Positions 4,066 through 41,559 of a DNA stretch of 64,000 nt are shown one piece after another. The translations under genes were made by a program, and so were the position numbers. The notes under the pieces were generated by a model. The model was not told where the DNA came from. It saw only the letters and a list, made by a program, of their open reading frames with translations, and did no database searches. Numbering within the stretch: the first letter of the stretch is position 1; each line of letters begins with the position of its first letter. The DNA is from Acidimicrobiales bacterium (lineage in GTDB: Bacteria > Actinomycetota > Acidimicrobiia > Acidimicrobiales > CATQHL01), in NCBI GenBank assembly GCA_965209115.1, contig CBDBQD010000002.1, forward strand, positions 1,223,890 to 1,287,889, written 5' to 3'.

Positions 4066-4480
4066 CTAGCCCTTGGCCTCGGTGAATGCGTCGGAGTAGT
4101 TCACTGAGTAGCCGAGGTACTTCAGCGCCGCGCCGATGGTCTCGCGGGGATCGTTCAGCAGCGAGATCTACCCGGAGTACTCATCCGCGATGGCGGGGTC
4201 GAAGATCAGTCCCCAGGTGCGCGGGACGTCATCGCCCACGACGGCGGTGTCCACGACGATGCCGGTGGTTCCCCAGACGTACACCGGCAGCGTCGTGGCG
4301 CCGGGTCCGGGGGCGAACTGGGTAACGACGTCGTCGAGCGAGAGGGTGAGAGCCAGCAGCGCGCCACCGGCGACGCCCGGTGCGATCTGGGGCAGCGTGA
4401 CGTGGCGGAACGCCTTCCAGCGGCTGGCGTAGAGGTCCATCGCCGCCTCCTCCAGCCACGAGGCCAAGGATTCCCAGGTG
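4066..4480 (-). pseudogene. remnant of a polyamine-type ABC transporter: permease C-terminus fused to a substrate-binding-protein fragment, with an in-frame stop
   Basis: Reverse translation gives ...SWLEEAAMDLYASRWKAFRHVTLPQIAPGVAGGALLALTLSLDDVVTQFAPGPGATTLPVYVWG, a PotB/PotC-like permease end. It runs directly into ...DVPRTWGLIFDPAIADEYSG*ISLLNDPRETIGAALKYLGYSVNYSDAFTEAKG*, which is PotD/PotF-like and has an internal TAG at about 4168-4170. Confidence 0.65.
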
Positions 4481-4529
4481 TGTCGTAGGGGTTGCGTAGG
4501 CTGTCGGCAGGGATCGATGAGGAGGGTGT

Positions 4530-23252: not shown

Positions 23253-23325
23253 GCCCCCGTAGCTCAGGGGACAGAGCAGGGGACTTCTAATCCCAAGGCC
23301 GCAGGTTCGAATCCTGCCGGGGGCG
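23253..23325 (+). tRNA. tRNA-Arg (anticodon TCT)
   Basis: Hand-folded cloverleaf: acceptor GCCCCCG/CGGGGGC, D arm GCTC-AGGGGACA-GAGC, anticodon loop CTTCTAA, T arm GCAGG-TTCGAAT-CCTGC, discriminator G. Total 73 nt. Confidence 0.9.
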
Positions 23326-23510
23326 CGGCGCCTCATCGTCGGGTATGGCACCGTGACAGCGGAGTGCACCACCGATCGGGCGACTGGCGGTTGACATCCG
23401 GACGGCGGTTCGGCGTAGTCGTCCAGACCGATGCCCTGCGCAGCGTCCTCGACCCGACCTGCCCACACCGCGGCGGGGGTTGAGCCACCTCGAGGCCGGT
23501 GGCGTCGGAG

Positions 23511-23712
23511 TTGGCGGCGTCCGAGGTGTCGGTAAGGCTGTCTCACCCCGTTCGTACGATCGGGTCCCTCGATCGAGGAGCCGAGACGAAGGCCGTGGCA
23601 GAACATTCGGTCATCGAGCAGACTGAGACGACGTGGAATCCAACCACGGGTTGTGCCCGCACGTCGCCGAGCCGCGACCACTGCTACGCGCTCGCTAAGC
23701 GGCTCAAGTCAG
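23511..23712 (+). pseudogene. decayed copy of the leader and first ~45 codons of the DUF5131 (Gp37/Gp68) gene
   Basis: Aligns by eye with 32981-33190. [38 protein letters not shown] corresponds to [40 protein letters not shown] in the intact gene. The middle Cys is lost, there are 3-nt and 6-nt deletions, and similarity stops at ~23712. Confidence 0.75.
23530..23564 (+). promoter_or_regulatory. conserved 35-nt leader element, copy 1
   Basis: cggtaaggctgtctcaccccgttcgtacgatcggg differs at 2 of 35 positions from 33001-33035. It contains the -10-like hexamer TACGAT. Confidence 0.35.
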
Positions 23713-23818
23713 AGATCCACCTCAGGTACGATCATCGCCGAGGTTCGCGGTGCGCAGTGCGGCGGCACTCACATCCGTCGCCGGTACGCGAGCGCACGTC
23801 GTCGGGAGGAGGCAGCAG

Positions 23819-24772
23819 ATGGCACGTTCAGACCTGCTGTTGAATCTCGTCGAGGCTGAGCGTTCGGGGGACCGGCAGCGGTTCTTGATGGTTGTCGAGT
23901 CGGTAATCGCAGAGGAGCGCCGGAAGCAGCATCATCTCGTTGCGGACCGGCTCGAAGAACTCATCTCGACGGCTGGATCCTCGGCGACCGCCCGGTACCA
24001 GAGCCCACCGGTAGCCCAGGACGGCCTGCTGCTGGAGGTCGTGCCGAGGCGGCGGCTGGCGGACCTGTCGCTGACGTCCGAAACGGCGACAACAGTGTCC
24101 GAGGTCATTGAGGAGCACCGCCGACGTGATGTGCTGAGGGCGCACGGGCTCGAGCCACGGCACCGGCTGATGCTTGTTGGGCCGCCCGGCAACGGCAAGA
24201 CGAGCCTGGCTGAGGCGATCGCCGCGGAACTGATGGTGCCGATGTTGGTGGCCTCGTATGAGGCGCTGATCAGCAGCTACCTCGGTGAGACTGCCAGCCG
24301 ACTCGCTGCGCTGTTCGAGTTCGTTCGATCGCGAGAATGCGTCTTGTTCTTTGATGAGTTCGACACGATTGCAAAGGAGAGGGCGGACGACCACGACACC
24401 GGTGAACTCAAGCGCGTGGTGTCGTCCCTCTTGTTGGGCGTTGATCGGCTACCGAGCCACGTAGTCGTGGTGACAGCGTCGAACCACCCGGAAGTCTTGG
24501 ACCGGGCCGCCGGGCGGCGGTTTCAAGTGCACGCAAACCTGCCGGCGCCGTCGCAGGCCGAGATCCAGCGGTTCGTCGAGCGACAGGAGAAGCGCGGTCA
24601 CGGCTTCGGCGTCAGTTCTGAGACGATCGCGAAGACCATGGTCGGTGCGAGTTACTCCGAGGTCGAAGACCTCCTGCTGGGTATTCGCCGCCGCTATGTG
24701 CTCGGCCTCCCAGATGCCGACCTGAAACGGACGGCACGAGAACGGCTGGATAGGTGGCGGAAGCAGACCTAG
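23819..24772 (+). CDS. ietA: AAA+ ATPase, IetA-like
   Basis: ATG 23819. Walker A GPPGNGKTS, Walker B VLFFDEFD, sensor region VVVTASNHPEVLD. Immediately followed by, and overlapping, an S8 protease gene, which is the IetAS architecture. Confidence 0.6.
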   Translation: MARSDLLLNLVEAERSGDRQRFLMVVESVIAEERRKQHHLVADRLEELISTAGSSATARYQSPPVAQDGLLLEVVPRRRLADLSLTSETATTVSEVIEEHRRRDVLRAHGLEPRHRLMLVGPPGNGKTSLAEAIAAELMVPMLVASYEALISSYLGETASRLAALFEFVRSRECVLFFDEFDTIAKERADDHDTGELKRVVSSLLLGVDRLPSHVVVVTASNHPEVLDRAAGRRFQVHANLPAPSQAEIQRFVERQEKRGHGFGVSSETIAKTMVGASYSEVEDLLLGIRRRYVLGLPDADLKRTARERLDRWRKQT

Positions 24773-27312
24773 TAGCACCGCCTTGGATCGTGCTCGAGGC
24801 GGTGCGGAAGGAGCGTATGCCGCCGCCGCAGCAGACAGGTCGGCCGCGTCTTCATACCCCTGACCATGGTGATCAGGTCACGCGGCGGGATCCTGGTTGG
24901 GCGTCGATCCGCAGAGCGTTCGATGCCGAGCGGATGCGGGTCGAGACTGCTGTCGGGTCGGAGGAGCCCGAACTCGTCGTTGTCATCGAGGTAGCGCGGT
25001 CGGTCGATGACTTCCTCGACACGGTTGAGAACATCGACGGCCTTGAGTTCCTGTTCGAGGACGCGGACGACCGCCCGCCGGACGACGACTTCCACCTGCT
25101 GCAGAAACGGAGGCATGCTGACGAGTACCGGCGGACGGCTTCCACGTCGCTCGCGTCCACCGTGTACTTCGTGTTCACCGACGCTGCCGCAGTCCGCGAC
25201 TTGTTGTCGATGTGGAAGCAGTTCAAGGAGAACCCATCCCTCCGACTTCCTCGGCCGTGGAGGCAGGTCTTCGCTCAGCAGGTCGAGGACGTGCGAGCCT
25301 GGGGGCCCAAGGATCGGTTGACAAAGTCGTTCGACGACGCCGTCCAGGCGGCGGAGTGGGAGGGGCTTGAGCGGATCTCCGTCGAGGTTGAACTCTGGTA
25401 TCGACGAGACCAGGAGGGTCGTGACGAGGCGGGTCGCCGCGTTCGCGACGAGGCGGCGGCGTGTGGGGGAACGGTCGTCAACGAGTGCGTGATTGAGGGC
25501 ATCGACTATCACGCACTGCTCGTTGAACTTCCCGTCGGAGAGGCGAAGTCCTTCTTCTCGGAGAACCCGGGGAATCTCGTCAGTGCGAAACAGGTGATGT
25601 ACCTGCATCGAAGCACGCAGTCAACGGTTCGTCGCCTTGAGGCCGTCGGCGAGTCACCCGCAGTCACCTCGGACGGCCCGAAACCGTCGGGATCACCGCG
25701 GATCGCGCTGCTCGATGGGTTGCCGATGGCGAACCACGACCTGCTCGCGGGCCGTCTCATCATTGACGACCCGGACGACCGCGAGCAGAGCTACCCAGCG
25801 CGGCACCGCCGGCACGGAACGGCGATGGCATCGGTCATCATCCATGGGGACCTGTCGGCGGCGCGGGATGTCTTGAGCCGTCCGCTGTACGTCCGCCCGA
25901 TCCTCGTAGCGCCCGACCGAGACGACGAGCCCGAGCGATACCCGAGAACCGAGTTGGTGTGCGATGTCGTGCACCGCGCGATTGTGCGAATCTGCGAGGG
26001 CGAGGGCGACGCTCCGCCGGTGGCTCCCGGTGTGAAGGTGGTCAACATCTCGATTGGTGATCCGGATCGCCATCTGGCTCGCCGTGTCAGTCCTCTGGCC
26101 CGATTACTGGACTATCTCGCTGACCGCTACGACCTGCTGTTTGTAGTCGCTGCGGGCAATCACCCTAAGCCGATCTCCTACGAGCCTCAGACCGGGGATC
26201 TCACGACCGACCTGCGGCGGGCGATCGTTGACGACTCACTTGATCGCCGGTTGCTTTCGCCGGCCGAATCGATCAACTCTCTGACGGTCGGCGCCCTCAA
26301 TTCGGATCGCAGCAACTCGGTTGTGAGGGCAGCAGACCATGTGGAGCCCGCGCCACCCGGCTCGCCGGCGCTGTATTCCGCGGTCGGCCGTGGCTTCGCT
26401 CGTTCGGTGAAGCCGGAGGTGTTCGCTCCCGGTGGCCGCCAGGTCTACGCGGAAGGCTTCGATAACGGTCAACCGGTACGAACGCTGCGGCCGATCGACA
26501 ACGTGGTGATAGGGCCGGGAGTGCTCCTTGCTCAGCCCAACTCCGCTGGCTCGACGGTCTCAGCTGAGTACTGGCGAGGCACGAGCCCGGCGACGGCCCA
26601 TGTCACGAGGTTCGCGTCCGATGTCCTCGACCGACTGGAACTCCTGCAGGCCGACCGCGGCGACGATGCTGTGCCCGACGAGTCGCTGACCGTGTTGACG
26701 AAGGCGCTTGTCGTCCACGCGGCAAGCTGGGGTGAGCCAATGACCTGGGAGACTGACGCGGGGGTCTCGGGCTCAGAGCGCCGCGGCGGGCTGAGCAGAC
26801 TGCTCGGTTACGGGCGCGTGTCGCCGTCCTGGCTGTTCACCGACGCGCCGCACCGGGCGACCCTGATTGCGACTGACGTGCTCGATGCCAACGAACAGGC
26901 ATTCTTTGACATCCCGCTCCCAGAGGGGCTCCGTTCGTCGACACACCGGCGCCGTCTCCGACTTACCTTGGCATGGTTCTCGCCGATCAACCCGAGGCAC
27001 CAGTCGTACCGCCGCGCTCGACTCGCACTTGAGATTCCGAAGACGAGTCGGACATTGATCGAAGTGGATCGCGCCGAGGTCCACCACGATACGGCGGTGC
27101 GTGGCACCGTCCAGCACGAGCTTCTCGAGGGGACCGATGCGCCGGTGTTCGACGACGGTGACAGATTCGGGGTCTTGGTGACGGCCCGGGCCGGAGCTGG
27201 AGCGCCTGGGGACAACATCCGGTTCGGATTGGTAGCCACCCTCGAGACCGCGATTGAGGCGGGCATCGCAGTGCGCGAGCAGATGCGAGCGAGGGTGCGG
27301 GTACGGCGATAG
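24754..27312 (+). CDS. ietS: S8-family (subtilisin-like) serine peptidase, IetS-like
   Basis: 852 aa. Catalytic-triad contexts are IALLDGLP (Asp), HGTAMASVIIHG (His) and GTSPATAHVTRF (Ser), with VVAAGNH as the oxyanion Asn. A large N-terminal domain of unknown function precedes them. The start codon (GTG 24754) is uncertain. Confidence 0.6.
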   Translation: MAEADLVAPPWIVLEAVRKERMPPPQQTGRPRLHTPDHGDQVTRRDPGWASIRRAFDAERMRVETAVGSEEPELVVVIEVARSVDDFLDTVENIDGLEFLFEDADDRPPDDDFHLLQKRRHADEYRRTASTSLASTVYFVFTDAAAVRDLLSMWKQFKENPSLRLPRPWRQVFAQQVEDVRAWGPKDRLTKSFDDAVQAAEWEGLERISVEVELWYRRDQEGRDEAGRRVRDEAAACGGTVVNECVIEGIDYHALLVELPVGEAKSFFSENPGNLVSAKQVMYLHRSTQSTVRRLEAVGESPAVTSDGPKPSGSPRIALLDGLPMANHDLLAGRLIIDDPDDREQSYPARHRRHGTAMASVIIHGDLSAARDVLSRPLYVRPILVAPDRDDEPERYPRTELVCDVVHRAIVRICEGEGDAPPVAPGVKVVNISIGDPDRHLARRVSPLARLLDYLADRYDLLFVVAAGNHPKPISYEPQTGDLTTDLRRAIVDDSLDRRLLSPAESINSLTVGALNSDRSNSVVRAADHVEPAPPGSPALYSAVGRGFARSVKPEVFAPGGRQVYAEGFDNGQPVRTLRPIDNVVIGPGVLLAQPNSAGSTVSAEYWRGTSPATAHVTRFASDVLDRLELLQADRGDDAVPDESLTVLTKALVVHAASWGEPMTWETDAGVSGSERRGGLSRLLGYGRVSPSWLFTDAPHRATLIATDVLDANEQAFFDIPLPEGLRSSTHRRRLRLTLAWFSPINPRHQSYRRARLALEIPKTSRTLIEVDRAEVHHDTAVRGTVQHELLEGTDAPVFDDGDRFGVLVTARAGAGAPGDNIRFGLVATLETAIEAGIAVREQMRARVRVRR

Positions 27313-27390: not shown

Positions 27391-30210
27391 ATGGCTGACC
27401 ATGCCGCTGGCGGGTTGACGCCTGAGCAGGAGGCTCGGCAGGAGATCGACGCGCAGTTGGTGGCGTGCGGGTGGGTGGTGCAGGACCACAGGCACGCGGC
27501 GATTGCTGCCGCTCGTGGGGTGGCGGTACGAGAGGTGCCTACCGATGCCGGGCGCGCTGACTACGTCCTGTTCGTGGACCGCCAAGCGGTGGGCGTGATC
27601 GAGGCCAAGCCGGTTGGGACGACGTTGACCGGGGTGGAGTCGCAGACGCTGCGGTACAGGGTTTCATTCCCCGACGAGCTGCCCGCTGTCCTGGTTAAGG
27701 AGTCGTTGCCTTTCGGTTACGAGTCCACCGGTGTCGAGACCCGGTTCACCTGCGGGTTGGATCCGGTGCCGACGTCGCGGCGGGTGTTCGCATTTCACCG
27801 GCCCGAGACGATGGCTCGATGGATTGACGACCACATCGAGGCAAAGGCCGGCACGCTGCGCGCCGGGTTGCAACTGTTGCCCGATCTCGATCCCCGAGGG
27901 CTCTGGACCGCTCAGGCGGAGGCCATTCGGGGCTTGGAGGAGTCCCTACTAGCCAACCGCCCGCGGGCATTGATCCAGATGGCCACCGGCGCCGGCAAGA
28001 CGTTCACCGCTGTCAACGCCATCTACCGGCTTGTGCGTCACGCCGGGGCGCAGCGTGTGCTGTTCCTGGTGGATCGGGCGACCCTGGGCCGCCAGGCCGT
28101 GCGGGAGTTCGAGGGTTTCGACACGCCTGATGACGGCCGGAAGTTCACCGAGTTGTACAACGTGCGCCGGCTCACCTCCTCGCACCTCGACATGGCCGCC
28201 GAGGGCGCCACGAAGGTGCACGTCTCGACGATCCAGCGGCTGCACTCGCTACTGCGGGGCGAGGAGATCGACGAGGCCGTCGACGAGCAGTCCGGCTTCG
28301 AGGTGGCGCCCGAGCAGCCCGTGGAGGTGGTCTACAACCCGGCGGTGCCCGTCGAGTCCTACGACGTGATCGTCGTCGACGAGTGCCACCGCTCCATCTA
28401 CGGGGTGTGGCGGCAGGTGCTGGAGTACTTCGACGCTTTCCTGGTCGGCCTGACCGCCACGCCGGGCATCCAGACCTTCGCCTTCTTCGAGCAGAACCTC
28501 GTCACCGAGTACGGCCACGCCGAGGCGGTGGCGGACCGGGTGAACGTGGACTTCGACGTGTTCCGCATCCGCACCGAGATCACCGAGGGCGGCAGCACCG
28601 TGCCTGCTGGGTTCGTCACGGGGTTCCGGGACCGTCTGACCCGCTCTGAGCGCCTCGAGCGGATCGACGCAGAGGTGGATTGCGACGCCGCAGAGTTGGA
28701 TCGCAGGGTGGTGGCGACCGATCAGATCCGCACCATCACAGCGACGCTGCGGAACTCGCTGCCGACGATGTTCCCCGACCGCGAGCGACATACCAATGGG
28801 CGGCTGCGCCACATCCCCAAGACACTGATCTTCGCGAAGGACGACAGCCACGCCGACGACATCGTGCAGATGGTGCGGGCGGAGTTCGGCCTCGGCAACG
28901 AGGGGGCGGTGAAGATCACCTACCGTTCGGGCGATTCGGGTCACCGCCCCGAGGACCTGCTGGCGCAGTTCCGGAACTCCTATAGCCCTCGTATCGCGGT
29001 GACCGTGGACCTCATCGCGACCGGCACCGACGTGAAGTCCATCGAGTGCGTGGTGTTCATGCGGCGGGTGCGCAGCCGCAACTACTTCGAGCAGATGAAG
29101 GGGCGTGGTGTGCGGGTCATCGACCCCAATGACCTGCGGGCCGTGACGCCCGACGCCACCGTGAAGGACCGCTTCGTGCTCGTCGACGCCGTCGGCGTAA
29201 CCGACGACGATCTGCACGACACCGTCCCGCTGGAGCGTCAACGCCACGAGAGCTTCGACAAGCTGCTGAGCCGCATCGGCCTTGGCTCCACCGCCGAGGC
29301 CACAGTGTCGTCGGTGGCGTCACGCCTGGCCCGCCTCGACCAGCGGATGACCGCCGGCGACCGCGCGGAGGTGGAAGCGGTCGCCGGGATGAGCCTCAGC
29401 GCTTTGGCCCATCAACTGGTGGAGGCGCTCGACCCCGACCGGCACATCGAAGCCGCCGCCGAGGCCGTCGGCACCGATGATCCCTCCGTCGAGCAGGTCG
29501 CCGCCGCCCGAGAGAGGATCGTCCGCCAGGCCCTGGAGCCGCTGGCCGGCAACCCGGAGTTGCGGCAGAAGCTGATCGAGGTCCGCCGAAGCTACGAGCA
29601 GATGATCGACTCGGCCTCACCCGATACGGTCATCTCCGAAGGGTTCTCCGTCGACGCCACCGACAGGGCCCGCCGCCAAGTCGAGTCGTTCCGAAAGTTC
29701 ATCGACGAGAACCGCGACCAGATCACCGCCCTCCAGGTGCTCTATGGCCAACCCCGTGGCGGGTTCACCTATACCGACGTCAAGGAACTGGCCAACGCCA
29801 TCGCCCGCCCACCCCACCGCTGGACCACCGAGAACCTCTGGGTTGCCTACGAGACTCTCGATGCCAGCAAAGTCCGAGGTTCGGGACACCGGGTCAACAC
29901 CGACCTCGTCAGCCTCGTCCGATTCGCGCTCGGCCGAACCGATGAGTTGGTCGCCTATCCCGAGTTGGTGGATGAGCGCTTCGAGGCGTGGATCCAGCAG
30001 CAGCGAAACGCCGGGCGCACCCTCACCGACGAGCAGATCGAGTACCTCAGCCTGATCCGCGATCACCTCGCGGGGAGTCTCGCGATCGCTCCGCCCGATC
30101 TCCAGAACCCACCCTTCAGCACCCACGGCGGCCTCGGCCGAGCAAGACAGCTCTTCGGGGCTGAACTCACTTCGCTGATGGACGAACTGATGGAAGTGCT
30201 AGTGGCGTGA
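27391..30210 (+). CDS. hsdR: type I restriction enzyme R subunit
   Basis: 939 aa. N-terminal nuclease-type region GRADYVLFVDRQAVGVIEAK, helicase motif I QMATGAGKT, motif II VVDECHRS, and an EcoEI-R-like C-terminal domain. Confidence 0.9.
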   Translation: MADHAAGGLTPEQEARQEIDAQLVACGWVVQDHRHAAIAAARGVAVREVPTDAGRADYVLFVDRQAVGVIEAKPVGTTLTGVESQTLRYRVSFPDELPAVLVKESLPFGYESTGVETRFTCGLDPVPTSRRVFAFHRPETMARWIDDHIEAKAGTLRAGLQLLPDLDPRGLWTAQAEAIRGLEESLLANRPRALIQMATGAGKTFTAVNAIYRLVRHAGAQRVLFLVDRATLGRQAVREFEGFDTPDDGRKFTELYNVRRLTSSHLDMAAEGATKVHVSTIQRLHSLLRGEEIDEAVDEQSGFEVAPEQPVEVVYNPAVPVESYDVIVVDECHRSIYGVWRQVLEYFDAFLVGLTATPGIQTFAFFEQNLVTEYGHAEAVADRVNVDFDVFRIRTEITEGGSTVPAGFVTGFRDRLTRSERLERIDAEVDCDAAELDRRVVATDQIRTITATLRNSLPTMFPDRERHTNGRLRHIPKTLIFAKDDSHADDIVQMVRAEFGLGNEGAVKITYRSGDSGHRPEDLLAQFRNSYSPRIAVTVDLIATGTDVKSIECVVFMRRVRSRNYFEQMKGRGVRVIDPNDLRAVTPDATVKDRFVLVDAVGVTDDDLHDTVPLERQRHESFDKLLSRIGLGSTAEATVSSVASRLARLDQRMTAGDRAEVEAVAGMSLSALAHQLVEALDPDRHIEAAAEAVGTDDPSVEQVAAARERIVRQALEPLAGNPELRQKLIEVRRSYEQMIDSASPDTVISEGFSVDATDRARRQVESFRKFIDENRDQITALQVLYGQPRGGFTYTDVKELANAIARPPHRWTTENLWVAYETLDASKVRGSGHRVNTDLVSLVRFALGRTDELVAYPELVDERFEAWIQQQRNAGRTLTDEQIEYLSLIRDHLAGSLAIAPPDLQNPPFSTHGGLGRARQLFGAELTSLMDELMEVLVA

Positions 30211-31487
30211 GCGACGCGCTGCCCTCCGGCTGGACAACGGCCACCCTTGACAACGTGTCTCGGGTTGTCCTCGGACAGTCTCCCCCAGGCAGTAGCTACA
30301 ACGATCGCGGCGAAGGTATCCCGTTCTTTCAGGGAAAGGCTGAGTTCGGAGATCGATACCCGGTCATTCGGAAGTGGACCACGGAACCGAAGAAGATTGC
30401 GCCAAGGGGATCAGTCCTCGTATCGGTACGGGCCCCGGTCGGGCCAACCAATGTTGCGCCGGTCGACTGCGCGATCGGTCGGGGTCTCGCGGCCGTAGGA
30501 GCGCTTGGAGAGATCTCTTCCGAATACTTGCTCTGGGCGATGCGCCAATCAGCTTCCAACCTCATCAGTGAGGCGACTGGAAGCACCTTCGACGCGATTA
30601 CCGGCGACCAGTTGAGAGCACACAGTCTACGGATCGCTCCACTCGATGAACAGAAGCGGATCGTTGCTGCCATCGAGGAGCACTTCTCCCGCCTCGACGC
30701 TGCCGAGGCCACGCTGACGGCTGCAAGACGAAAGCTCGCCTCTCTTCGACGCTCTGCGGTTGCGCGACTGTTTGATCAATCTGACTGGACATGGACGACT
30801 CTCGGGGAGGTCGCCGAGATCAAGGGGGGTGTGACCAAGGACTCGAAACGTCAGAGCGATCCGAGCTACGTCGAGGTCCCATACCTACGAGTCGCAAATG
30901 TCCAGAGGGGCTACCTGGATCTCTCGGAGGTGTCGCGGATTCGTGTACGTCCCGCCAAGGCCGAACAACTTGCCCTTCGCACCGGTGACGTTCTGTTCAA
31001 CGAAGGCGGTGACCGCGACAAACTCGGCCGGGGCTGGGTCTGGGAAGGACAGATCGACGGCTGCATACATCAGAATCATGTGTTTCGCGCTCGATTGAGC
31101 AGTGGAGAGTTCGATCCGTACTTCGTGTCGGTGCACGGGAACACGTGGGGCCAGCGATGGTTCGAGACTCACGGGAAGCACACCACGAATCTCGCGACGC
31201 TCAACCTGACGACATTGAAGTCGTTCCCGGTCCCGGCGCCACCGCTCGTCGAGCAGCGCAAGGTTGTGGCCGAGTTCCAGTCAATCCGCAGGAGCGAGGA
31301 CCGCCTGCGCGCTGAGATCAGTCGGGCGGAGAGCCGCTCGGCCGCTCTGCGGCGTTCGATCCTCGCTGACGCCTTCTCCGGGCGACTCGTGCCGCAGGAT
31401 CCCGATGACGAGCCTGCGTCGGTGCTCCTCGAGCGCATCGCCGAGTCTCGGCCGGCGAAGCCGCCTCACCGGAGGACGCGATCGTGA
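30207..31487 (+). CDS. hsdS: type I restriction enzyme S (specificity) subunit
   Basis: 426 aa. Two target-recognition halves are separated by conserved helices (PLDEQKRIVAAIEEHFSRLD and PPLVEQRKVVAEFQSI). GTGA overlap with hsdR. Confidence 0.9.
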   Translation: MSDALPSGWTTATLDNVSRVVLGQSPPGSSYNDRGEGIPFFQGKAEFGDRYPVIRKWTTEPKKIAPRGSVLVSVRAPVGPTNVAPVDCAIGRGLAAVGALGEISSEYLLWAMRQSASNLISEATGSTFDAITGDQLRAHSLRIAPLDEQKRIVAAIEEHFSRLDAAEATLTAARRKLASLRRSAVARLFDQSDWTWTTLGEVAEIKGGVTKDSKRQSDPSYVEVPYLRVANVQRGYLDLSEVSRIRVRPAKAEQLALRTGDVLFNEGGDRDKLGRGWVWEGQIDGCIHQNHVFRARLSSGEFDPYFVSVHGNTWGQRWFETHGKHTTNLATLNLTTLKSFPVPAPPLVEQRKVVAEFQSIRRSEDRLRAEISRAESRSAALRRSILADAFSGRLVPQDPDDEPASVLLERIAESRPAKPPHRRTRS

Positions 31488-32941
31488 CCTCCGATCCGAA
31501 GGCGTTGGTGCAGAGGCTGTGGGATTTCTGCGACGTCCTGCGTGATGACGGGTTGTCGTACGGGGAGTACCTGGAGCAGCTCACCTATCTGCTGTTCTTG
31601 AAGATGGCCGACGAGCAGTTCGAGCAGCTCGGCGGGCAGCGGGTGGTGCCGGCGGGGTTCGGCTGGGCGTCGCTGTTGCGGCGCTCGGGCGTCGAGTTGG
31701 AGCAGCACTACAGCACGGTGCTCGAAGAGCTCGGCGCGGGCGAGGACATGCTGGGGGTGGTATTCGGGAAGGCGCGCAATCGGGTGCAGGATCCGGCGAA
31801 GCTGGAGCGGCTCATCAAGGAGTTCGTGGACCGCCACGAGTGGCTGAGCCTGGATGCCGATCTGAAGGGCGACGCCTACGAGGGACTGATCGAAAAGACC
31901 GCGCAGGAGGGCGCCCGCGGGGCGGGCCAGTACTTCACGCCCCGGGCGTTGATCTCGGCCATCGTCGACGTGATGCGGCCGGGCCCCGATGATCGCGTCT
32001 GCGACCCGGCGTGTGGCACCGGCGGCTTCTTCCTCGGCGCCTACCAGTCGATCCTCCAGCGCTTCCCGCACCTGGAGCCGCACCAGACGGCGCACCTGCG
32101 GTCGGGGGCGTTCACGGGTTGGGAGATCGCGGATCTGCCGGCGCGGCTGTGCGCCATGAATCTGCTGCTGCACGGCATCGAGAGCCCCGAGTCAGACTCG
32201 CCGATCCGCGTCGACGACGCGCTGCGGGACTCTCCGAGCGCCCGCTTCGACATGGTGCTCACGAACCCGCCGTTCGGGCGGTCCTCCTCGGATAGCTACG
32301 AGCGGGAGGACTTCTGGGCCGCCACCCGCAACAAGCAACTCAACTTCGTGCAGCACATCGCCGGCCTGCTTCGCATCGACGGCACCGCGGCGGTGGTGGT
32401 GCCCGACAACGTGCTGTTCGAGGCCGGCGCCGGCGAGACGATCCGCCGCCGCCTGCTGGCTGACTGCGAGGTCCACACCCTGCTGCGCCTGCCGACGGGC
32501 ATCTTTTACGCCCAGGGCGTCAAGGCCAACGTCTTGTTCTTCCGCCGCCGCCCCGGCGCCGAGGCGGCCTGGACCCGCGAGCTGTGGGTCTACGACCTGC
32601 GCACCAACAAGCACTTCACCCGCAAGCAGAACCCCCTGCGCCGCGCCGACCTCGACGACTTCGTGACCTGCTACCGCCCCGACGAGTTCCACCGCCGCGA
32701 GGAGTCCGAACGCTTCAAGCGCTTCACCTACGAGGAACTGCTGGCCCGCGACAAGGTCAGCCTCGACATCTTCTGGCTCCGCGACGACAGCCTCACCGAC
32801 ACCGACGACCTCCCACCCCCCGCCGTCCTCGCCGCCGAGATCGCCGAAGACCTCCAAGCCGCCCTAGAAGAAATCCAAACCCTCGCCGACTCCCTGGCAG
32901 CCACCGAAATCGCGTCGGGCGGGGAGCAGACCGGAGACTGA
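31484..32941 (+). CDS. hsdM: type I restriction enzyme M subunit (N6-adenine methyltransferase)
   Basis: 485 aa. N-terminal LWDFCDVLRDDGLSYGEYLEQLTYLLFLKM, motif I DPACGTGGF, catalytic NPPFG. GTGA overlap with hsdS. Confidence 0.9.
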   Translation: MTSDPKALVQRLWDFCDVLRDDGLSYGEYLEQLTYLLFLKMADEQFEQLGGQRVVPAGFGWASLLRRSGVELEQHYSTVLEELGAGEDMLGVVFGKARNRVQDPAKLERLIKEFVDRHEWLSLDADLKGDAYEGLIEKTAQEGARGAGQYFTPRALISAIVDVMRPGPDDRVCDPACGTGGFFLGAYQSILQRFPHLEPHQTAHLRSGAFTGWEIADLPARLCAMNLLLHGIESPESDSPIRVDDALRDSPSARFDMVLTNPPFGRSSSDSYEREDFWAATRNKQLNFVQHIAGLLRIDGTAAVVVPDNVLFEAGAGETIRRRLLADCEVHTLLRLPTGIFYAQGVKANVLFFRRRPGAEAAWTRELWVYDLRTNKHFTRKQNPLRRADLDDFVTCYRPDEFHRREESERFKRFTYEELLARDKVSLDIFWLRDDSLTDTDDLPPPAVLAAEIAEDLQAALEEIQTLADSLAATEIASGGEQTGD

Positions 32942-32980: not shown

Positions 32981-33190
32981 TTGGCGGCGCTGGCGGGCAG
33001 CGGTAAGGCTGTCGCACCCCGTTCCTACGATCGGGATCGTGAATAGTCGAGCCGGGAAGAAGGGCATGGCCGACCGTTCGGGCATCGAGTGGACCGAGAC
33101 GACGTGGAACCCGACCACGGGTTGTGACCGCACGTCTCCGGGGTGCGACAACTGCTACGCGCTCGCGCTCGCCAAGCGGCTCAAGGCCAT
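32981..33190 (+). repeat. intact counterpart of the diverged direct repeat at 23511-23712
   Basis: Covers the leader plus the 5' coding region of the DUF5131 gene. By eye it is roughly 70-95% identical to the left copy, depending on the sub-segment. Confidence 0.75.
33001..33035 (+). promoter_or_regulatory. conserved 35-nt leader element, copy 2
   Basis: cggtaaggctgtcgcaccccgttcctacgatcggg. Matches copy 1 at 33 of 35 positions and lies 30-60 nt upstream of the DUF5131 start candidates. Confidence 0.35.
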
Positions 33191-33818
33191 GGGTCAGCCC
33201 AAATATCGCAATGACGGAGACCCCCGCACCAGCGGCCCCGGCTTCGCGCTGACCCTCCATCCCGACACCCTGGACGTCCCCTACACGTGGCGGTCGCCGC
33301 GGCTGGTCTTCGTCAACTCGATGAGCGATCTCTTCCACCCCGACGTGCCGCTGGACTTCATCCGCCGCGTGTTCGAGGTGATGGCTGACACGCCGCAGCA
33401 CACCTACCAGATCCTCACCAAGCGCTCCCGACGGCTGCGCAACCTCTCCGAGGGCCTCGACTGGCCCGACAACGTCTGGATGGGCGTCAGCGTCGAGACC
33501 GAGCGCTACGCCTTCCGCATCGACCACCTCCGCCAAGTCGGCGCCAAAGTCCGCTTCCTCAGCGCCGAACCCCTGCTCGGAGCGCTCCCCGACCTCGATC
33601 TCACCGGCATCGACTGGCTGATCGCCGGCGGCGAGAGCGGCCCCGGTGCCCGGCGCATGGAGGAGGAGTGGGTCCGCGACCTCCGCGACCAGTGCGGATC
33701 CGCCGGCGTCGCCTTCTTCTTCAAGCAATGGGGAGGCCGAACCCCCAAAGCCAACGGCCGCGACCTCGACGGCAAACACCACGACGAGATGCCACAGCGC
33801 TACTTCGCCTTCACATGA
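33039..33818 (+). CDS. DUF5131 / phage Gp37-Gp68 family protein (three-Cys motif)
   Basis: Family hallmarks: IEWTETTWNPTTGCDRTSPGCDNCYA (Cx6CxxC), FVNSMSDLFH, ILTKR, LSAEPLL, IAGGESGPGARRM, FFFKQWGG. ATG 33066 (MADRSG) is an alternative start. Confidence 0.85.
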   Translation: MNSRAGKKGMADRSGIEWTETTWNPTTGCDRTSPGCDNCYALALAKRLKAMGQPKYRNDGDPRTSGPGFALTLHPDTLDVPYTWRSPRLVFVNSMSDLFHPDVPLDFIRRVFEVMADTPQHTYQILTKRSRRLRNLSEGLDWPDNVWMGVSVETERYAFRIDHLRQVGAKVRFLSAEPLLGALPDLDLTGIDWLIAGGESGPGARRMEEEWVRDLRDQCGSAGVAFFFKQWGGRTPKANGRDLDGKHHDEMPQRYFAFT

Positions 33819-34894
33819 CTTCACGCCTGGAGGGGTGGGACTGGTGGTCTGAGGCGAAGCTCCAAGTCTTGGCGGACTACTTGCAGGCGTTCACTCGAGT
33901 CGTCCGAGGCGGATCGGAGGAAGCCATCTACCTCGATCTGTTCGCCGGCAGCTTCGAAAACGACCGGCGCCACGGCACGGGCACCTTCGCGGGCTCGACT
34001 CAGATTGCCCTCCGCACCGAACCGAGGTTCACAAAGCTGGTGTTCTTCGAGTTGCCGGATAGAGCCGCCCGCCTCCGCGCCGACATCCAACAGGCTCGAC
34101 CCTCGGACCATCGCTGGCGCGTCAAGGCGGGCGACTGTAACGAAACGTTGCCATCGGCGCTCTCGATGCTCAGACAGGTCCGGTGGGCGCCAACCTTCGC
34201 GTTCCTGGATCCCCGCGGTCTGCAGGTCGAGTGGAGCACTGTCCGAACCCTCGCCGACTGGCGGCGCGACAAGAAAACGAAGGTGGAGCAATGGATTCTG
34301 ATGCCAGAGCCGGCGATCGCCCGTGTACTCGGCCTACGCGGCGTGCAAGGAACACGCAGCGCAGAGCGTCTGGATCGGCTCTTCGGTTCCCGTGATTGGC
34401 TTCCGATCCACCAGGGCCGGCGGAGCGGCGCACTCACGCCAGAGGACATGCGTGCTGAGTTCGTCAACCTCTACCGGTGGCGGCTCGAGAAGGTGCTCGG
34501 CTACCGCACCACCCACGCGCTCCAGATTGTGGCCACGGGTGGCCAACCCGTCTACACGCTCATCTTCGCCACAGACTCCCCACCTGGCGACGCCATCATG
34601 GGGTATCTCTACAACTCCGCCGCGACCGCGACGATCCCCGCGATGCAAGCGCGGGCCAAGGTCGCTCGACAGCATCGTCGCGACGACGACGCCGGAGTCC
34701 TCCGATTGCCGGGCCTAGACGAATACGAGTTGGCGACTGCCGTGCCTGAGCAGCGTACGTACGAGCATGAGCTGCCTTGGGAGCCCGAGCCGATAGTCGA
34801 CGACACATTCGAACTCGACAGGGACGAACCGGACATTGACCCAGACGACATCAAGTGGAACAGCGAGTTCGACGACCACAATGAGGACACGTAG
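33815..34894 (+). CDS. three-Cys-motif partner protein TcmP-like
   Basis: ATG 33815 overlaps the DUF5131 stop (ATGA). Reads WDWWSEAKLQVLADYLQAFTRV..IYLDLFAGSF....FAFLDPRGL, followed by a very acidic C-terminal tail. Confidence 0.7.
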   Translation: MTSRLEGWDWWSEAKLQVLADYLQAFTRVVRGGSEEAIYLDLFAGSFENDRRHGTGTFAGSTQIALRTEPRFTKLVFFELPDRAARLRADIQQARPSDHRWRVKAGDCNETLPSALSMLRQVRWAPTFAFLDPRGLQVEWSTVRTLADWRRDKKTKVEQWILMPEPAIARVLGLRGVQGTRSAERLDRLFGSRDWLPIHQGRRSGALTPEDMRAEFVNLYRWRLEKVLGYRTTHALQIVATGGQPVYTLIFATDSPPGDAIMGYLYNSAATATIPAMQARAKVARQHRRDDDAGVLRLPGLDEYELATAVPEQRTYEHELPWEPEPIVDDTFELDRDEPDIDPDDIKWNSEFDDHNEDT

Positions 34895-35256
34895 GCCGAA
34901 TTCAATGGATCGCTCCATTCGTACGAGTCCGCGCGCCTCCCTTGAACTGGAAGCGCTGAGCGAGGATCCTGACACCGAATCCGGCAGTGGCGAAGTCGCT
35001 ACAGCGCGCTTAGGTGGTTTACATCTGTTCGACTTTCCCGCAGCGCACACGGTGGACGCCGCACCGAGTCGGAGACAACCCCAACCGGGTCAGTTCGGAG
35101 TCGGTGATCGGGACGGGGTGCGGCACTTGGCCCTCATCGTCTCGTCTGCTACGACCGATCGACACACGCTCGATCGAGGTGGCCACCGCCATACCGAGCC
35201 AACATGCGACCGGTGGTCCCCTCGCCACCATCTCCCGGAGTCAAGCGAGGGTGGAG

Positions 35257-35285
35257 TTCAAGGGCAGTTCAGTCACGGCTATTCT
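35257..35285 (+). promoter_or_regulatory. sigma-70-like promoter, probably giving a leaderless or near-leaderless transcript
   Basis: TTCAAG (35257-35262), a 17-nt spacer, then TATTCT (35280-35285). The -10 element ends 8 nt before ATG 35294, and no Shine-Dalgarno sequence is visible. Confidence 0.35.
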
Positions 35286-35293
35286 CATTTGGC

Positions 35294-36682
35294 ATGAAAC
35301 GGGATGACATACCGATCGGCGAGCTCTTGCTTGACGCTGAGAATCCGCGGCATGGTGAGGTTGAGGACCAAGATGCGGCCTTGGAGCGACTCGTCGCGAT
35401 CCGTCCGCAGCATCTCAGGAGCCTCACTGAAGACATCGCAAAGAACGGACTTCACCCGGGACTCGGCTTTCTGGTCTTCCCGACTGAGGACGGTCGCTTT
35501 GTGGTTCTGGACGGTAATCGGCGACTGGCCGCGATCAAGCTCCTCACGCAACCAGATTCTGCGCCAGCGTCCTGGCGGCCAATCACCACCGAGATCGAGG
35601 TTGACCTCAACTCGTTCGAGAGACTGCCGTGCACCATCTTAGATTCGCGTGAGGACGGGAGGCTGTGGCTCGAACGGATGCACACAGGCCAGATGAACGG
35701 AGTCGGGGTTGTGCAATGGCCGCCAATGGCGCAGCATCGCTTTAGTCCCCGCAACGATCAGCGAGGTCGAGGAGCTGCCGCGTTGGCCTGGTTGAGCAGC
35801 CGAACTGAGCCGGGCGAGGCCGATCTTCATGAAGCGATCGAGACCGTGGAAGGCGAGATCACGACTTTTGGCCGGCTTGTGCAGACCAGTGCTGTGCGGC
35901 CGATCTTGGGGTACGACTTCAAGGGCAATGAACTGGTGCCAACCGAGGGCACCAGCGAACTCGTCCTCTACGAACGCTTGATTTCCGCTGTCAAAGACCT
36001 CGCAGGCGGAAAGGATGTCAACGACCTGCGGACGATTCCGCAGCGCGTCGCATACGCCCACGCCTTGGCCGGTTCAAGCGAGAGCGACGACGAGAGCGAC
36101 CCTCGGGCACAGGAGGAACCTGCCGAGCAGGCCGCAGACGAGTCGGAGGGGGAACAATCCACGGGTGGCGAGGATCAGGAACCGGCGAGCGAGGGTGAGT
36201 CGCAGGAAGCGACCAAGCCCAAGAGGCGGAAGCGGTCGAGTCAGCCGAAGGCGAGCGTTCTCGACGCTCCCCTGCCAGATGTTTTCAGACCTCGAATCGT
36301 GCGAATCTCAGAAGAACTCTGCGCTCTCAACGTTCACGAGCATCCGAACGCTGTGGCCGTACTCCTGCGGCTGCTGATCGAAATGACTACGGAGCAGTGT
36401 CGACGCGCAGAGAATCTCTCAAAGCAGGGCGACCTGAGGGAGCACATCGAACGCGTGGTCCAGCGAGTTCAGACGCCCCAAGACCAGAAGGACAACGTGT
36501 TCCACGGCGTCACGGTAAGTCTGAGCACTCCCAAAGACCGTGACCACACGAAAAACTTCAATCAACATGTCCACAATGTGGACTACCACCCTGTGCCGAC
36601 GGACTTGATCAACACCGCGGAGAACTACCGGCCGTACTTCGAGCGGATCGGTCAACGCCTAGCTGGCAAGGCGGCCAGTTGA
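35294..36682 (+). CDS. ParB N-terminal-domain (ParB/Srx-fold) protein with an acidic linker and an unknown C-terminal domain
   Basis: ATG 35294. LLLDAENPRHGE and VVLDGNRRLAAIKLL are ParB/sulfiredoxin-fold motifs. A low-complexity acidic stretch (SSESDDESDPRAQEEPAEQAADESEGEQSTGGEDQEPASEGESQEATKPKRRKRS) is followed by ~125 aa with no family I recognise. Confidence 0.6.
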   Translation: MKRDDIPIGELLLDAENPRHGEVEDQDAALERLVAIRPQHLRSLTEDIAKNGLHPGLGFLVFPTEDGRFVVLDGNRRLAAIKLLTQPDSAPASWRPITTEIEVDLNSFERLPCTILDSREDGRLWLERMHTGQMNGVGVVQWPPMAQHRFSPRNDQRGRGAAALAWLSSRTEPGEADLHEAIETVEGEITTFGRLVQTSAVRPILGYDFKGNELVPTEGTSELVLYERLISAVKDLAGGKDVNDLRTIPQRVAYAHALAGSSESDDESDPRAQEEPAEQAADESEGEQSTGGEDQEPASEGESQEATKPKRRKRSSQPKASVLDAPLPDVFRPRIVRISEELCALNVHEHPNAVAVLLRLLIEMTTEQCRRAENLSKQGDLREHIERVVQRVQTPQDQKDNVFHGVTVSLSTPKDRDHTKNFNQHVHNVDYHPVPTDLINTAENYRPYFERIGQRLAGKAAS

Positions 36683-36685
36683 GCG

Positions 36686-37549
36686 ATGCCATATGTGAGT
36701 CCGCTGCGATATCCGGGCGGAAAATCGCTGTTGGCGAAATTCGTCGCAGATGTGCTAGCCCGCCTGCCAGACGTCCAGCACTACATGGAGCCGTTCGCAG
36801 GGGGCGCGGCTGTGGCGCTTCGTCTGCTCTACGAAGGCAGCGTGTCATCAGTGACCATAGGCGACTCCGATCCGGCCGTCGCCGCGTTCTGGCGTTGTGC
36901 GGTCCACCGAAGCGACGAGCTGATCGAGAGGGTGACTGAGTGCCAGGTGGTGATCGGCACATGGCACACCCAGTATCAGACTCTGACGAACCCAGACCGC
37001 ACAGACGACCTTGACCTCGGGTTCGCGACCTTCTTCCTCAACCGCACCAACCGATCAGGAATCTTGCGCGCACGACCCATTGGAGGCTTGCGACAGGATG
37101 GCGAGTGGCGCTTGGACTGCCGCTTCAACAAGGACGACCTTGTCCAGCGGCTGCGCAGAGTCGCCCAGTACGCAGCTCAGATCGACATCTTCGAAGGCGA
37201 CGCGATCGACCTACTCGCGCGCGTCGACAAGGCTCGCAGACAGAGCACCTTCGTATATGTGGACCCGCCCTACCTGACGCGTTCCTCGGACCTGTATCTG
37301 GACGAGATGTCATTCGACGGGCACAAGCAGATCGCACAGCTGCTGCGCGACGAATTCCCGTACTGGATGGCGAGTTACGACATCGATGATCGCGTGCGGT
37401 CGGAGCTGTACTCCGAGAGCCCCATATTGACCTTCGCGCTGCGCCACTGCGCATCAAGCAACCATATTGGAACCGAGCAGATCGCGTTCTCTGATGCATG
37501 CGTGCTGGACGACGAAGTCCGCTACCCCAGAGCCGCTGCCTGGGTCTGA
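36686..37549 (+). CDS. Dam-like (D12 class) N6-adenine DNA methyltransferase
   Basis: 287 aa with PLRYPGGK, EPFAGGAAV (SAM motif), FFLNRTNRSG and VYVDPPY (catalytic motif). Starts 3 nt after the ParB-like gene. Confidence 0.85.
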   Translation: MPYVSPLRYPGGKSLLAKFVADVLARLPDVQHYMEPFAGGAAVALRLLYEGSVSSVTIGDSDPAVAAFWRCAVHRSDELIERVTECQVVIGTWHTQYQTLTNPDRTDDLDLGFATFFLNRTNRSGILRARPIGGLRQDGEWRLDCRFNKDDLVQRLRRVAQYAAQIDIFEGDAIDLLARVDKARRQSTFVYVDPPYLTRSSDLYLDEMSFDGHKQIAQLLRDEFPYWMASYDIDDRVRSELYSESPILTFALRHCASSNHIGTEQIAFSDACVLDDEVRYPRAAAWV

Positions 37550-37760
37550 ATTCGGGCAGACTACCTTCAGCCGGTGATGTACCGGCCCCAGGCTGCCATT
37601 GTGGCGTCGCGGGTGAGTAGGTGGCGTCGCTCGTGGACGGCGTCTTGGTCGTGGTGAGCGACGTGAACGGGTAGCCGCCAGGTCCCAGGTCACGGCGTGC
37701 TGTGGATGGTGCCCGGCGTTGGTTCTTGGACCCCGTGAGGGTGGCGCGTAGGATCGGAGC

Positions 37761-40130: not shown

Positions 40131-40548
40131 CAGGTCCGCCCGGGTCTCCGCCCGCGGGGCTGTCACAGGGCGTGGCTATCCTGCGATGCAGCGGTCCGTG
40201 GGCGCTGCCCGTTGGCCGCCGTCTCGGCCGCCCGCCGTGTCGTTCGGAACGTGACCTCCCCTGCTCACGCCGATCCGAGCCCCTCGCCTCACGGCGCTGT
40301 CGTCTCCGGCCGCTCGCTGCGACGGGCAGAGAGTCGCGGACCGAGACCCACCATCACCGACGAGCGGACGGCGCCTCGCGCGACGGGCCTGATCCGCCAG
40401 CAGGGAGAAACGAATGAGAACGATGCCGAACTCCGCCCGGAGCCAGACCAACGGATCCCAGCCCGCCACACCTCTCGGTCTCGCGGGGGAGTGCGACCCG
40501 CCACCGGGGGAGGAGGGCATCGACGAGTTGGGACCGCCCCCGGTCGTC

Positions 40549-41096
40549 ATGCCTTTCCGTGTGAATGTCATCCGCAGCGCCAACCGGCACAAGACCGTGT
40601 CCTCCCGTCTGACGGGCGGGGTCCTCGAGATCCGGATACCGGCCTGGATGTCCGACTACGACGAGGCCGAGGTCGTCAACAACTTCTGTCGACGATTCGA
40701 AGAGCGCCACCGTTGCTGGGAGGTCGACCTGGGCGCCCGCGCGCGCGACCTCGCTGCCCGCTACGACCTTCCGGAACCTCGCGCCATCCGCTGGTCCACG
40801 CGGCAGCGCCGGCGCTGGGGTTCCTGCAGCACGTTGAAGGGTGAGATCCTCATCTCGCACCGGCTGACCGAGGTGCCCCCGTGGGTACTCGACTACGTCA
40901 TCGTCCACGAGTTGGCCCATCTCCTCGAGTCGGATCACTCGGCGGCCTTCGACGCCTTGGTGCGCGCTACCCGCTCACGGAGCGGGCCATCGGCTACCTG
41001 GAGGCCTTCGGTGCCTGGGCGGATGGCGTCCTCGAGCGGAGCCCGGAGAATCGAGCCGCCGCCCCGAGCGGCCGACGTCGTTCACCACGCGATTGA
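40549..41096 (+). pseudogene. DUF45/YgjP-like M48-family zinc metallopeptidase, frameshifted
   Basis: MPFRVNVIRSANRHKTVSSRL...RWGSCS...DYVIVHELAHLLESDHSAAFDALV is in frame 1. The family-typical continuation ARYPLTERAIGYLEAFGAW is in another frame (ORF 40881..41096). The frame switch lies at about 40958-40966. Confidence 0.7.
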
Positions 41097-41148
41097 CCGC
41101 TCTCCGGGGCTACCTTATGGTTCGCCGAACCGGCTGGTGAGGAGCAAT

Positions 41149-41559
41149 ATGACCATCAACGCGCTCGACCACTACAACATCCAGACGGCGCGGCTCGACG
41201 AGACGGTCGAGTTCTATGTCGACGTGCTCGGCTTCGCCAAGGGCTACCGGCCGGGAGTGCGCGGGACCGGGGCATGGCTCTACGCGGGCGGCCACCCGTG
41301 CGTGCACATCAACGTGATCGACGACGACATGACCGGACCCACCGGTCCCATCAACCACGTCGCCTTCGAGACGGCGAACGAGCCGGGCGACTACGAGGCC
41401 ATGCAGCAGAGGCTGACCGAGCGGGGGCTGCCGTTCGAGGTGAACGACAGCAGGCCCAACATCCCGCTTCGGCAGATATTCCTGCACGATCCCAACGGCA
41501 TCCGCCTCGAACTGAACTACCGAGACGCCCCGCTGGTGCCGGATCCTGTCGACGCCTGA
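41149..41559 (+). CDS. VOC/glyoxalase-family protein
   Basis: ATG 41149 after ggtgaggag. Reads MTINALDHYNIQTARLDETVEFYVDVLGF...HVAFE...IRLELNY. Confidence 0.8.
   Translation: MTINALDHYNIQTARLDETVEFYVDVLGFAKGYRPGVRGTGAWLYAGGHPCVHINVIDDDMTGPTGPINHVAFETANEPGDYEAMQQRLTERGLPFEVNDSRPNIPLRQIFLHDPNGIRLELNYRDAPLVPDPVDA

Follow-up and report, generated by a model that had tools for sequence, protein, structure and literature searches.

The window analyzed here is a 64,000-nucleotide (nt) stretch of contig CBDBQD010000002.1 from an Acidimicrobiales bacterium (assembly GCA_965209115.1, positions 1,223,890 to 1,287,889 of the forward strand), and our subject is a pair of adjacent genes within it, referred to below as A and B. 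An earlier note made from the letters of this DNA had described the pair as a ParB-like protein coupled to a D12 adenine methylase and had proposed it as a candidate noncanonical restriction-modification (R-M)–like pair or, alternatively, an antidefense pair. An open reading frame (ORF) list and inspection of the sequence itself gave the two genes as follows (coordinates are those of the window):

35294–36682, plus strand: gene A, PD-Lambda-5_A, encoding a ParB/Srx-HEPN-like protein of 462 amino acids (aa)
36686–37549, plus strand: gene B, PD-Lambda-5_B, encoding a predicted D12-class N6-adenine DNA methyltransferase of 287 aa

Gene A ends with a TGA stop codon at 36680–36682 and is followed, after a 3-nt gap (GCG, 36683–36685), by the ATG of gene B at 36686 on the same strand; the TGA stop of B is at 37547–37549. 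The start of A at 35294 (MKRDDI...) was favored over an upstream in-frame ATG at 35204 because its homologues begin at MKRDDI. The GC (guanine plus cytosine) content is 0.603 for A, 0.609 for B, and 0.606 for the pair, compared to 0.688 and 0.704 in the left and right core flanks; at third codon positions (GC3), it is 0.70 for A and 0.75 for B, while core genes have 0.86 to 0.94. The spacing of the genes, their composition visibly below that of the core, and the motifs quoted in the earlier note are all as described there. Protein A contains ENPRH (residues 16–20), DGNRRLAAIKLL (73–84), an acidic low-complexity stretch (~263–307), and KPKRRKR (308–314), and protein B contains RYPGGK (8–13), EPFAGGAAV (35–43), and DPPY (193–196).

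Both proteins were matched by PADLOC hidden Markov models (HMMs) of a known antiphage system, PD-lambda-5. Protein A matched model PDLC03998 (PD-Lambda-5_A) with an E value of 1.6e-77, residues 1–452 being aligned to positions 1–463 of 466, and 24 additional PD-Lambda-5_A models also match it. Protein B matched PDLC04018 (PD-Lambda-5_B) with an E value of 4.2e-96 (residues 2–277 aligned to positions 2–278 of 291). The locus thus has what characterizes PD-lambda-5: a full-length A homologue and a full-length B homologue encoded by adjacent, co-oriented genes. Pfam and NCBIfam gave no family for A at threshold, and a search of A against PDB sequences returned low-complexity noise only. A homologue from Escherichia coli, P0237 (489 aa), aligned to A over its full length with 26% identity (E = 5e-26), and its gene is followed by a gene for a 284-aa D12 methylase in a region resembling an integrative and conjugative element (ICE). 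When this ICE-borne E. coli pair was compared by megablast to 5,426 complete E. coli genomes, no match was obtained, and the validated ECOR7 proteins RCQ13837.1 and RCQ13838.1 were absent from a cluster look-up of E. coli homologues.

PD-lambda-5 is an already known system, which was named and validated in 2022 and is detected by standard defense-annotation tools. It was found by functional selection for phage resistance in E. coli; the prototype came from a P2-like prophage of ECOR7 (QOWS01000001 264599–267059) and is listed in Supplementary Table 1 of that work as “ParB/HEPN, methyltransferase” (Vassallo et al. 2022, PMC9519451). Its protection is broad, plaquing being reduced for nearly all of ten test phages, and it was interpreted as R-M and abortive infection compacted into one system (PMC9519451). 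It could be maintained only in a host without the mrr region, namely MG1655 lacking this region (PMC9519451), and therefore the methylase is inferred to modify host DNA. Later papers restate the reading of Vassallo et al. with no added mechanism, and a survey of Actinobacteria already lists PD-Lambda-5 there, frequently prophage-borne. Because of the full-length family matches and the published prototype, we assign the pair to this named, validated system. Judged by this kinship, the pair very probably is a PD-lambda-5–type antiphage defense cassette working in an R-M–like way. The earlier idea of a noncanonical R-M–like pair holds up well in this light, as does the suggestion that a methylation-dependent system has the ParB-like protein as its effector or sensor; both coincide with what the literature proposes for PD-lambda-5.

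Relatives of A were sought in one genome per species, and the best 80 loci of the 408 found were analyzed. In 74 of these 80, a D12 methylase homologous to B (34 to 91% identity) is encoded directly downstream on the same strand. The other six comprise one contig that ends 86 nt past A, one inverted methylase gene located 2 kb away, and four matches confined to the N-terminal part. The loci span Acidimicrobiia, Proteobacteria, Chloroflexota, Gemmatimonadota, Bacteroidota, Acidobacteriota, Cyanobacteria, Saccharibacteria, and other groups, so the co-occurrence of the A family with D12 methylases, which the earlier note had wanted surveyed, was found to be a linkage present in many phyla. Identities of the A and B homologues to the window proteins co-vary over 65 loci (Pearson r = 0.79, Spearman 0.52, with a near-identical locus excluded). 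Taken together, full-length HMM matches of 1e-77 and 1e-96 and the recurrent gene order are far beyond chance.

The four N-terminal-only loci (L060, L071, L054, and L051) encode proteins different from A. These are shorter (260 to 416 aa), contain only the ParB-like N-terminal part, and have no D12 methylase nearby. An upstream ORF with a C5-methylase–like motif is present at L060, an HsdM-like gene at L071, and adjoining DUF5131-TcmP genes at L054.

The closest relative of the pair is in an Acidimicrobiaceae metagenome-assembled genome (locus L001). A blastn comparison of the whole window with this locus gave a single match, which defines the first of the following two features:

35255–37558, plus strand: mobile two-gene cassette, the DNA common to L001 (92.2% over 2317 nt)
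34895–35293, plus strand: 399-nt intergenic gap from the end of TcmP to the beginning of A, presumed to bear the promoter

The edges of the cassette are 39 nt before the ATG of A and 9 nt past the stop codon of B; the flanks are unrelated to L001, and the last 39 nt alone of the 399-nt gap are in common. In L001, the cassette is located inside a type I R-M locus (L001 1–9831). Upstream of it are an N6_Mtase (hsdM-like) gene and an unassigned 411-aa ORF, which is probably the type I specificity gene, and the gene that follows it encodes an HsdR of 1149 aa with a Schlafen/AlbA_2 domain at its C terminus. Because L001 has only window positions 35255–37558 in common, and in a different setting, the pair is a sharply bounded mobile 2.3-kb cassette, two genes that travel from one defense island to another as a self-contained unit. 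No sigma-70–type consensus was found upstream of A in a scan that is uninformative, the host genome being of the high-GC actinobacterial type; the promoter and terminator scan around the pair was likewise uninformative.

A tight two-gene cassette that moves as a sharply edged unit, with near-obligate gene linkage, would also suit a module whose main function is addiction (post-segregational killing). The methylase would then be the antidote and A a toxin acting once methylation lapses; the module would stabilize the island, with defense being secondary. It is known that R-M systems can behave as addiction modules. HEPN domains, moreover, are treated as toxins by Anantharaman et al. (2013). Against this stands the origin of the prototype, which was recovered by selecting for phage resistance and gives broad protection. 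We therefore consider addiction improbable as the main function and see it more as a second role, compatible with defense, than as a true rival.

Protein B matched the Pfam family PF02086 (MethyltransfD12) with an E value of 1.1e-17 and has all the D12 motifs, as befits the complete D12 adenine methylase that the earlier note had recognized. The PLRYPGGK motif, residues E35, P36, G39, and G40, and the DPPY motif are retained by at least 95% of the 67 family members compared, and the nearest solved structure is that of the adenine methyltransferase 7m6b (E = 1.8e-15). The score of B was 60.4 bits against TIGR00571 (“dam”), which has a cut-off of 114.85, and 17.4 against NF008152, which has a cut-off of 441. 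Because B scores below the curated “dam” cut-off, its sequence places it in the D12 class, not among orthodox Dam enzymes or Dam orthologues (TIGR00571/PRK10904). Segment 118–146 of B (LNRxNxSG...IGGxxQxG...R), which we take to correspond to the DNA-contacting hairpin of Dam-family structures, is among the best conserved across phyla, and since a putative DNA-contacting hairpin is so strongly conserved, this region hints at a shared methylation target. The methylase had been reported to lack a recognizable restriction endonuclease partner. Consistent with this, Pfam, NCBIfam, PDB sequence, and fold searches revealed no classical restriction endonuclease (PD-(D/E)XK, HNH, GIY-YIG, or PLD) in A, and no such domain adjoins B.

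The anatomy of protein A was derived from an AlphaFold2 model based on a 28-sequence alignment [mean predicted local distance difference test score (pLDDT) of 81] and from conservation in 103 diverse representatives, mostly 22 to 30% identical to A of the window. Four regions can be distinguished:

35294–35743, plus strand: A residues 1–150, predicted ParB/Srx-fold N-terminal domain with NPR and GNRR motifs and an HTGxxxGxGxxxW loop (conservation, Foldseek)
35744–36079, plus strand: A residues 151–262, helical middle domain, possibly DNA binding (AlphaFold2, Foldseek)
36080–36256, plus strand: A residues 263–321, disordered acidic linker with a basic patch at its end (pLDDT, column conservation)
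36257–36679, plus strand: A residues 322–462, C-terminal helical HEPN-like domain (stand-alone model, Foldseek)

Invariant residues of the N-terminal domain are G74, N75, R76, and R77, which form the ParB arginine motif, as well as H130, G136, and W142; N17 and R19 of the NPR-type motif are nearly invariant. Elsewhere in the protein, R194, R359, and H427 are invariant and G206, R251, E363, and N428 nearly so. The middle domain was modeled with pLDDT mostly of 85 to 95. In the linker, pLDDT falls below 50 at residues 265–317 and column conservation is 0.14 to 0.24, the lowest in A; a K/R-rich patch directly before the C-terminal domain recurs in A homologues.

Foldseek searches with residues ~1–260 of the model returned ParB-CTP/CDP, Noc, KorB, sulfiredoxin, SbnI, and PadC (probability of 0.97 to 1.00, E = 2e-3 to 1e-1), and with C-terminally truncated ParB, Noc, and KorB, which comprise the N-terminal and DNA-binding domains, the alignments cover 260 to 280 columns. 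According to the model, the N-terminal domain of A adopts the ParB/Srx fold; these matches and the invariant GNRR bear out the ParB-type N terminus proposed from the motifs. Since partition/CTPase ParB, Noc, and KorB, DNA-binding domain included, are the best fold matches, one may ask whether A is a partition-type ParB that lies by chance beside an orphan Dam-like regulatory methylase. A has no ParA gene beside it; TcmP precedes it and the D12 methylase follows it, the latter pairing being the recurrent one among the 80 loci. A does not reach the Pfam ParB_N threshold, B has 60 bits where the TIGR00571 “dam” cut-off is 114.85, and the pair is in a low-GC island. The gene-order and family results effectively refute this explanation, whose probability we regard as negligible.

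The C-terminal domain of A, modeled alone, gave a pLDDT of 89 and a predicted template modeling (TM) score of 0.85. About two-thirds of its 30 PDB matches in Foldseek are HEPN proteins (E = 1.3 to 10, TM score of 0.40 to 0.56), the top ones being TM0613, HepT toxins, ST0689, YutE, and the sacsin HEPN domain. In a viral structure library, a single match of comparable TM score (0.44) is annotated as HEPN (E = 2). A sequence profile of the domain retrieved nothing beyond low-complexity noise from PDB sequences. The consensus around the invariant His427 is NLNQYVHN, and the invariant Arg359 and nearly invariant Glu363, located in an earlier helix of the domain, may be an alternative to the usual HEPN arginine; some HEPN families keep the histidine yet are without the arginine (Anantharaman et al. 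2013). The domain was found in 2454 cluster representatives, where it is mostly C-terminal in proteins of 430 to 520 aa. The earlier note could not place this domain, and indeed there is no significant family match; structure prediction does, however, point weakly to HEPN, the label used by Vassallo et al.

From these data, a mode of action can be proposed. B would methylate adenines in the host chromosome, and the resulting N6-methyladenine (m6A) would serve as the self mark. A would engage DNA via its nucleotide-binding ParB/Srx module and helical middle domain, presumably under nucleotide control, and would detect unmethylated, invading DNA. Nicking or nuclease activity occurs in some ParB/Srx proteins, and A may accordingly nick or cut unmethylated DNA via a ParB/Srx-type activity. 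Alternatively, the HEPN-like C-terminal domain could cleave RNA as a putative metal-independent RNase that relies on the invariant His427 and Arg359. The two effectors might act singly or together, and the outcome may be restriction, abortive infection, or both. Any particular effector chemistry of A is proposed with much less confidence than membership of the pair in an R-M–like defense system.

Because the fold matches are CTP-dependent ParB, Noc, and KorB and include their DNA-binding domain, a more specific version can be formulated, in which PD-lambda-5_A would be a new kind of restriction effector that combines a nucleotide-gated ParB-type DNA clamp or scanner with a noncanonical HEPN-like effector. 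The scanner would read the absence of m6A and then free the HEPN-like domain across an autoinhibitory acidic linker, and this domain would use Arg359, Glu363, and His427 in place of Rx4-6H. We advance this version tentatively and consider it rather unlikely. The strong conservation of the putative hairpin of B would fit a fixed, shared methylation target, unlike the diversifying specificities of ordinary R-M systems.

Several points weigh against assignment of the pair to PD-lambda-5 defense or against parts of it. The link to the validated ECOR7 proteins RCQ13837.1/RCQ13838.1 is indirect and runs via the PADLOC models named after them and via P0237, and experimental protection rests on the E. 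coli prototype, not on any actinobacterial copy. No mechanistic paper on PD-lambda-5 was found in the literature searched, and a search for “ParB-HEPN” found nothing. Protein A has no match to Pfam ParB_N (PF02195) at the gathering threshold; ParB_N matches were obtained for 3 of the 103 A relatives, with a best E value of 0.062. The HEPN assignment is weak, with E values of at least 1 for all Foldseek matches, and matches to HEPN-clan Pfam families are below threshold (DUF4145 in 10 of 103 relatives, best E = 0.016; Csm6 HEPN in 2 of 103). The canonical Rx4-6H motif is absent from A, as the positions 4 to 6 residues before the invariant His427 are occupied by N, S, T, H, or Q and not by R. 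Because the fold matches are nonsignificant, the Pfam matches are subthreshold, and Rx4-6H is lacking, we call the domain HEPN-like only and regard an RNase activity as putative.

The pair resembles the PD-lambda-5 prototype in that a D12 adenine methylase of ~285 aa comes after a ParB-like/HEPN-like protein of ~460 to 500 aa. The weak similarities to ParB and to DUF4145/HEPN fall in the same regions as in the HHsearch table of Vassallo et al., where DUF4145 was reported for the A-type protein at 35.6% probability (PMC9519451). It differs from the prototype in its location, which is a tRNA-linked defense island of a high-GC Acidimicrobiia-like chromosome rather than a P2 prophage hotspot. Window A is only ~26% identical to the E. 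coli homologue, it is shorter (462 aa compared to ~489 to 506 aa), and its linker is strongly acidic.

ParB-HEPN fusions and operons combining ParB, methylase, and HEPN genes were catalogued by Anantharaman et al. (2013). The window pair shares with them a ParB fold, a HEPN-type helical domain, a link to a DNA methylase, and an R-M–like context; compared by description to Saro_3948 and MAE_28990, the window domain is without the Rx4-6H arginine and without a Pfam HEPN family at threshold. DpnII-like type II R-M systems with a Dam-family (D12, alpha-class) methylase are similar in that a stand-alone D12 methylase, with motif I and DPPY, is paired with one other gene, whose product presumably acts on unmethylated DNA. 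They differ from the pair in that A has a ParB/Srx fold and a HEPN-like domain in place of a PD-(D/E)XK, HNH, GIY-YIG, or PLD nuclease. With systems of the GmrSD/DndB/DUF262 type, the likeness consists of a ParB/Srx-fold N-terminal nucleoside triphosphate–binding module, a DGxxR motif, and modification-aware defense, and weak, subthreshold matches to Pfam GmrSD_N recur in 9 of the 103 A-family members. Unlike GmrSD-type proteins, A has no HNH (DUF1524) domain, is paired with a methylase, and would not act on modified DNA.

Homologues of A also occur in phages. A tblastn search of phage genomes revealed them in Pseudomonas and Vibrio phage records. In one of these, Pseudomonas phage record OQ658368.1 (L082), the A homologue has 464 aa and is annotated as hypothetical, and downstream of it, on the opposite strand (4469–5230, minus), there is an unannotated B homologue (36% identity, E = 7e-57). 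In P2-like coliphages (a P2 isolate, vB_EcoM-12474III, Wphi, and Yersinia L-413C; loci L083 228–3266 and L081 2986–6022), a protein of 357 to 372 aa has only A residues ~1–165 in common (profile E = 3e-26). In vB_EcoM-12474III, the ParB-like gene comes right after the portal gene Q and is followed by a gene for an unrelated protein of ~330 to 340 aa and by a convergent C5-type methylase gene. These phage matches were considered as the P2-prophage prototype and rejected, since with different partner genes and a C5 methylase they belong to a different system. Because the P2-like coliphage proteins have the N-terminal ~165 residues alone in common with A, the ParB-like module of A appears to serve in other combinations as well, with different partners and methylases.

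The pair is part of an island that starts directly after a tRNA-Arg(TCT) gene (23253–23326) and contains, from left to right, a 5′ DUF5131 gene fragment, IetA, IetS, hsdR-hsdS-hsdM, DUF5131-TcmP, A, and B. The features around the pair are as follows:

23750–27312: IetA (AAA ATPase) and IetS (subtilase) defense pair, overlapping genes (PADLOC E = 1.2e-132 and 2.3e-254)
27391–32941: complete type I R-M system with hsdR (939 aa, EcoEI_R_C domain), hsdS (426 aa), and hsdM (485 aa)
33039–33818: DUF5131/Gp37Gp68-family gene (PF07505, E = 5e-101)
33815–34894: TcmP, three-Cys-motif partner protein (TIGR04474, E = 7.5e-50)
37761 onward: transketolase/pyruvate-dehydrogenase-E1–like core gene to the right of the island, where GC content is back to ~0.70

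Stop and start codons of hsdR, hsdS, and hsdM overlap; this type I system lies 2.3 kb upstream of A and is unrelated to the pair. The DUF5131 and TcmP genes overlap by ATGA and match the PADLOC candidate systems PDC-M41 and PDC-M30. A linkage of PD-lambda-5 to DUF5131-TcmP was rejected, as DUF5131 is nearby in only 2 of the 80 loci. A repeat of ~190 nt with ~83% identity (23520–23716 and 33001–33185) corresponds to the DUF5131 upstream region and the first ~50 codons; its left copy is just past tRNA-Arg, and IetAS and the type I R-M genes are located between the copies, as if this block had been inserted or recombined at the DUF5131 locus. No att-type repeat of the tRNA-Arg 3′ end was found at the right island edge. 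The pair is the last element before the core gene at 37761 and, as had been noticed earlier, forms the distal end of the island. Farther to the right, an ORF at 40414–41559 has YgjP-like metallopeptidase (PF01863) and glyoxalase/dioxygenase (PF00903) domains; it could represent a fusion or two separate genes called as a single ORF.

This setting bears on the alternative raised in the earlier note, according to which the pair is a phage or mobile-element self-protection or antirestriction module, where the methylase would premethylate the DNA of the element and the ParB-like protein would help the element. ParB-like domains adjoining or fused to methylases are common in phages, A homologues are present in prophages, as in the Pseudomonas and Vibrio phage records, and PD-Lambda-5 is often prophage-borne in Actinobacteria. 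In the window, however, the neighbors of the pair are defense genes, and no phage structural or integrase genes were found around it; the setting is a chromosomal defense island, not a prophage. In addition, the E. coli prototype lowers plaquing of foreign phages, and the conserved effector-like C-terminal domain of A, with its invariant Arg and His, would be needless for mere self-methylation. This alternative found no support, and we consider it highly improbable.

The practical consequence of assigning the pair to PD-lambda-5 is for annotation: Genes described as “hypothetical/ParB-like plus methylase” deserve the PD-lambda-5 label here, within a five-system defense island. New from this copy are another host lineage, the boundaries of the cassette, and a list of residues, of which GNRR 74–77, H130, G136, W142, R194, R359, and H427 of A are candidates for mutagenesis. 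The weak HEPN call and the CTPase-ParB–like fold are worth noting for those who study the mechanism of PD-lambda-5. A system validated in E. coli is now extended to high-GC genomes of the Acidimicrobiia type, which is of modest biological value, and its cassette travels sharply bounded and lands beside or inside type I R-M loci.

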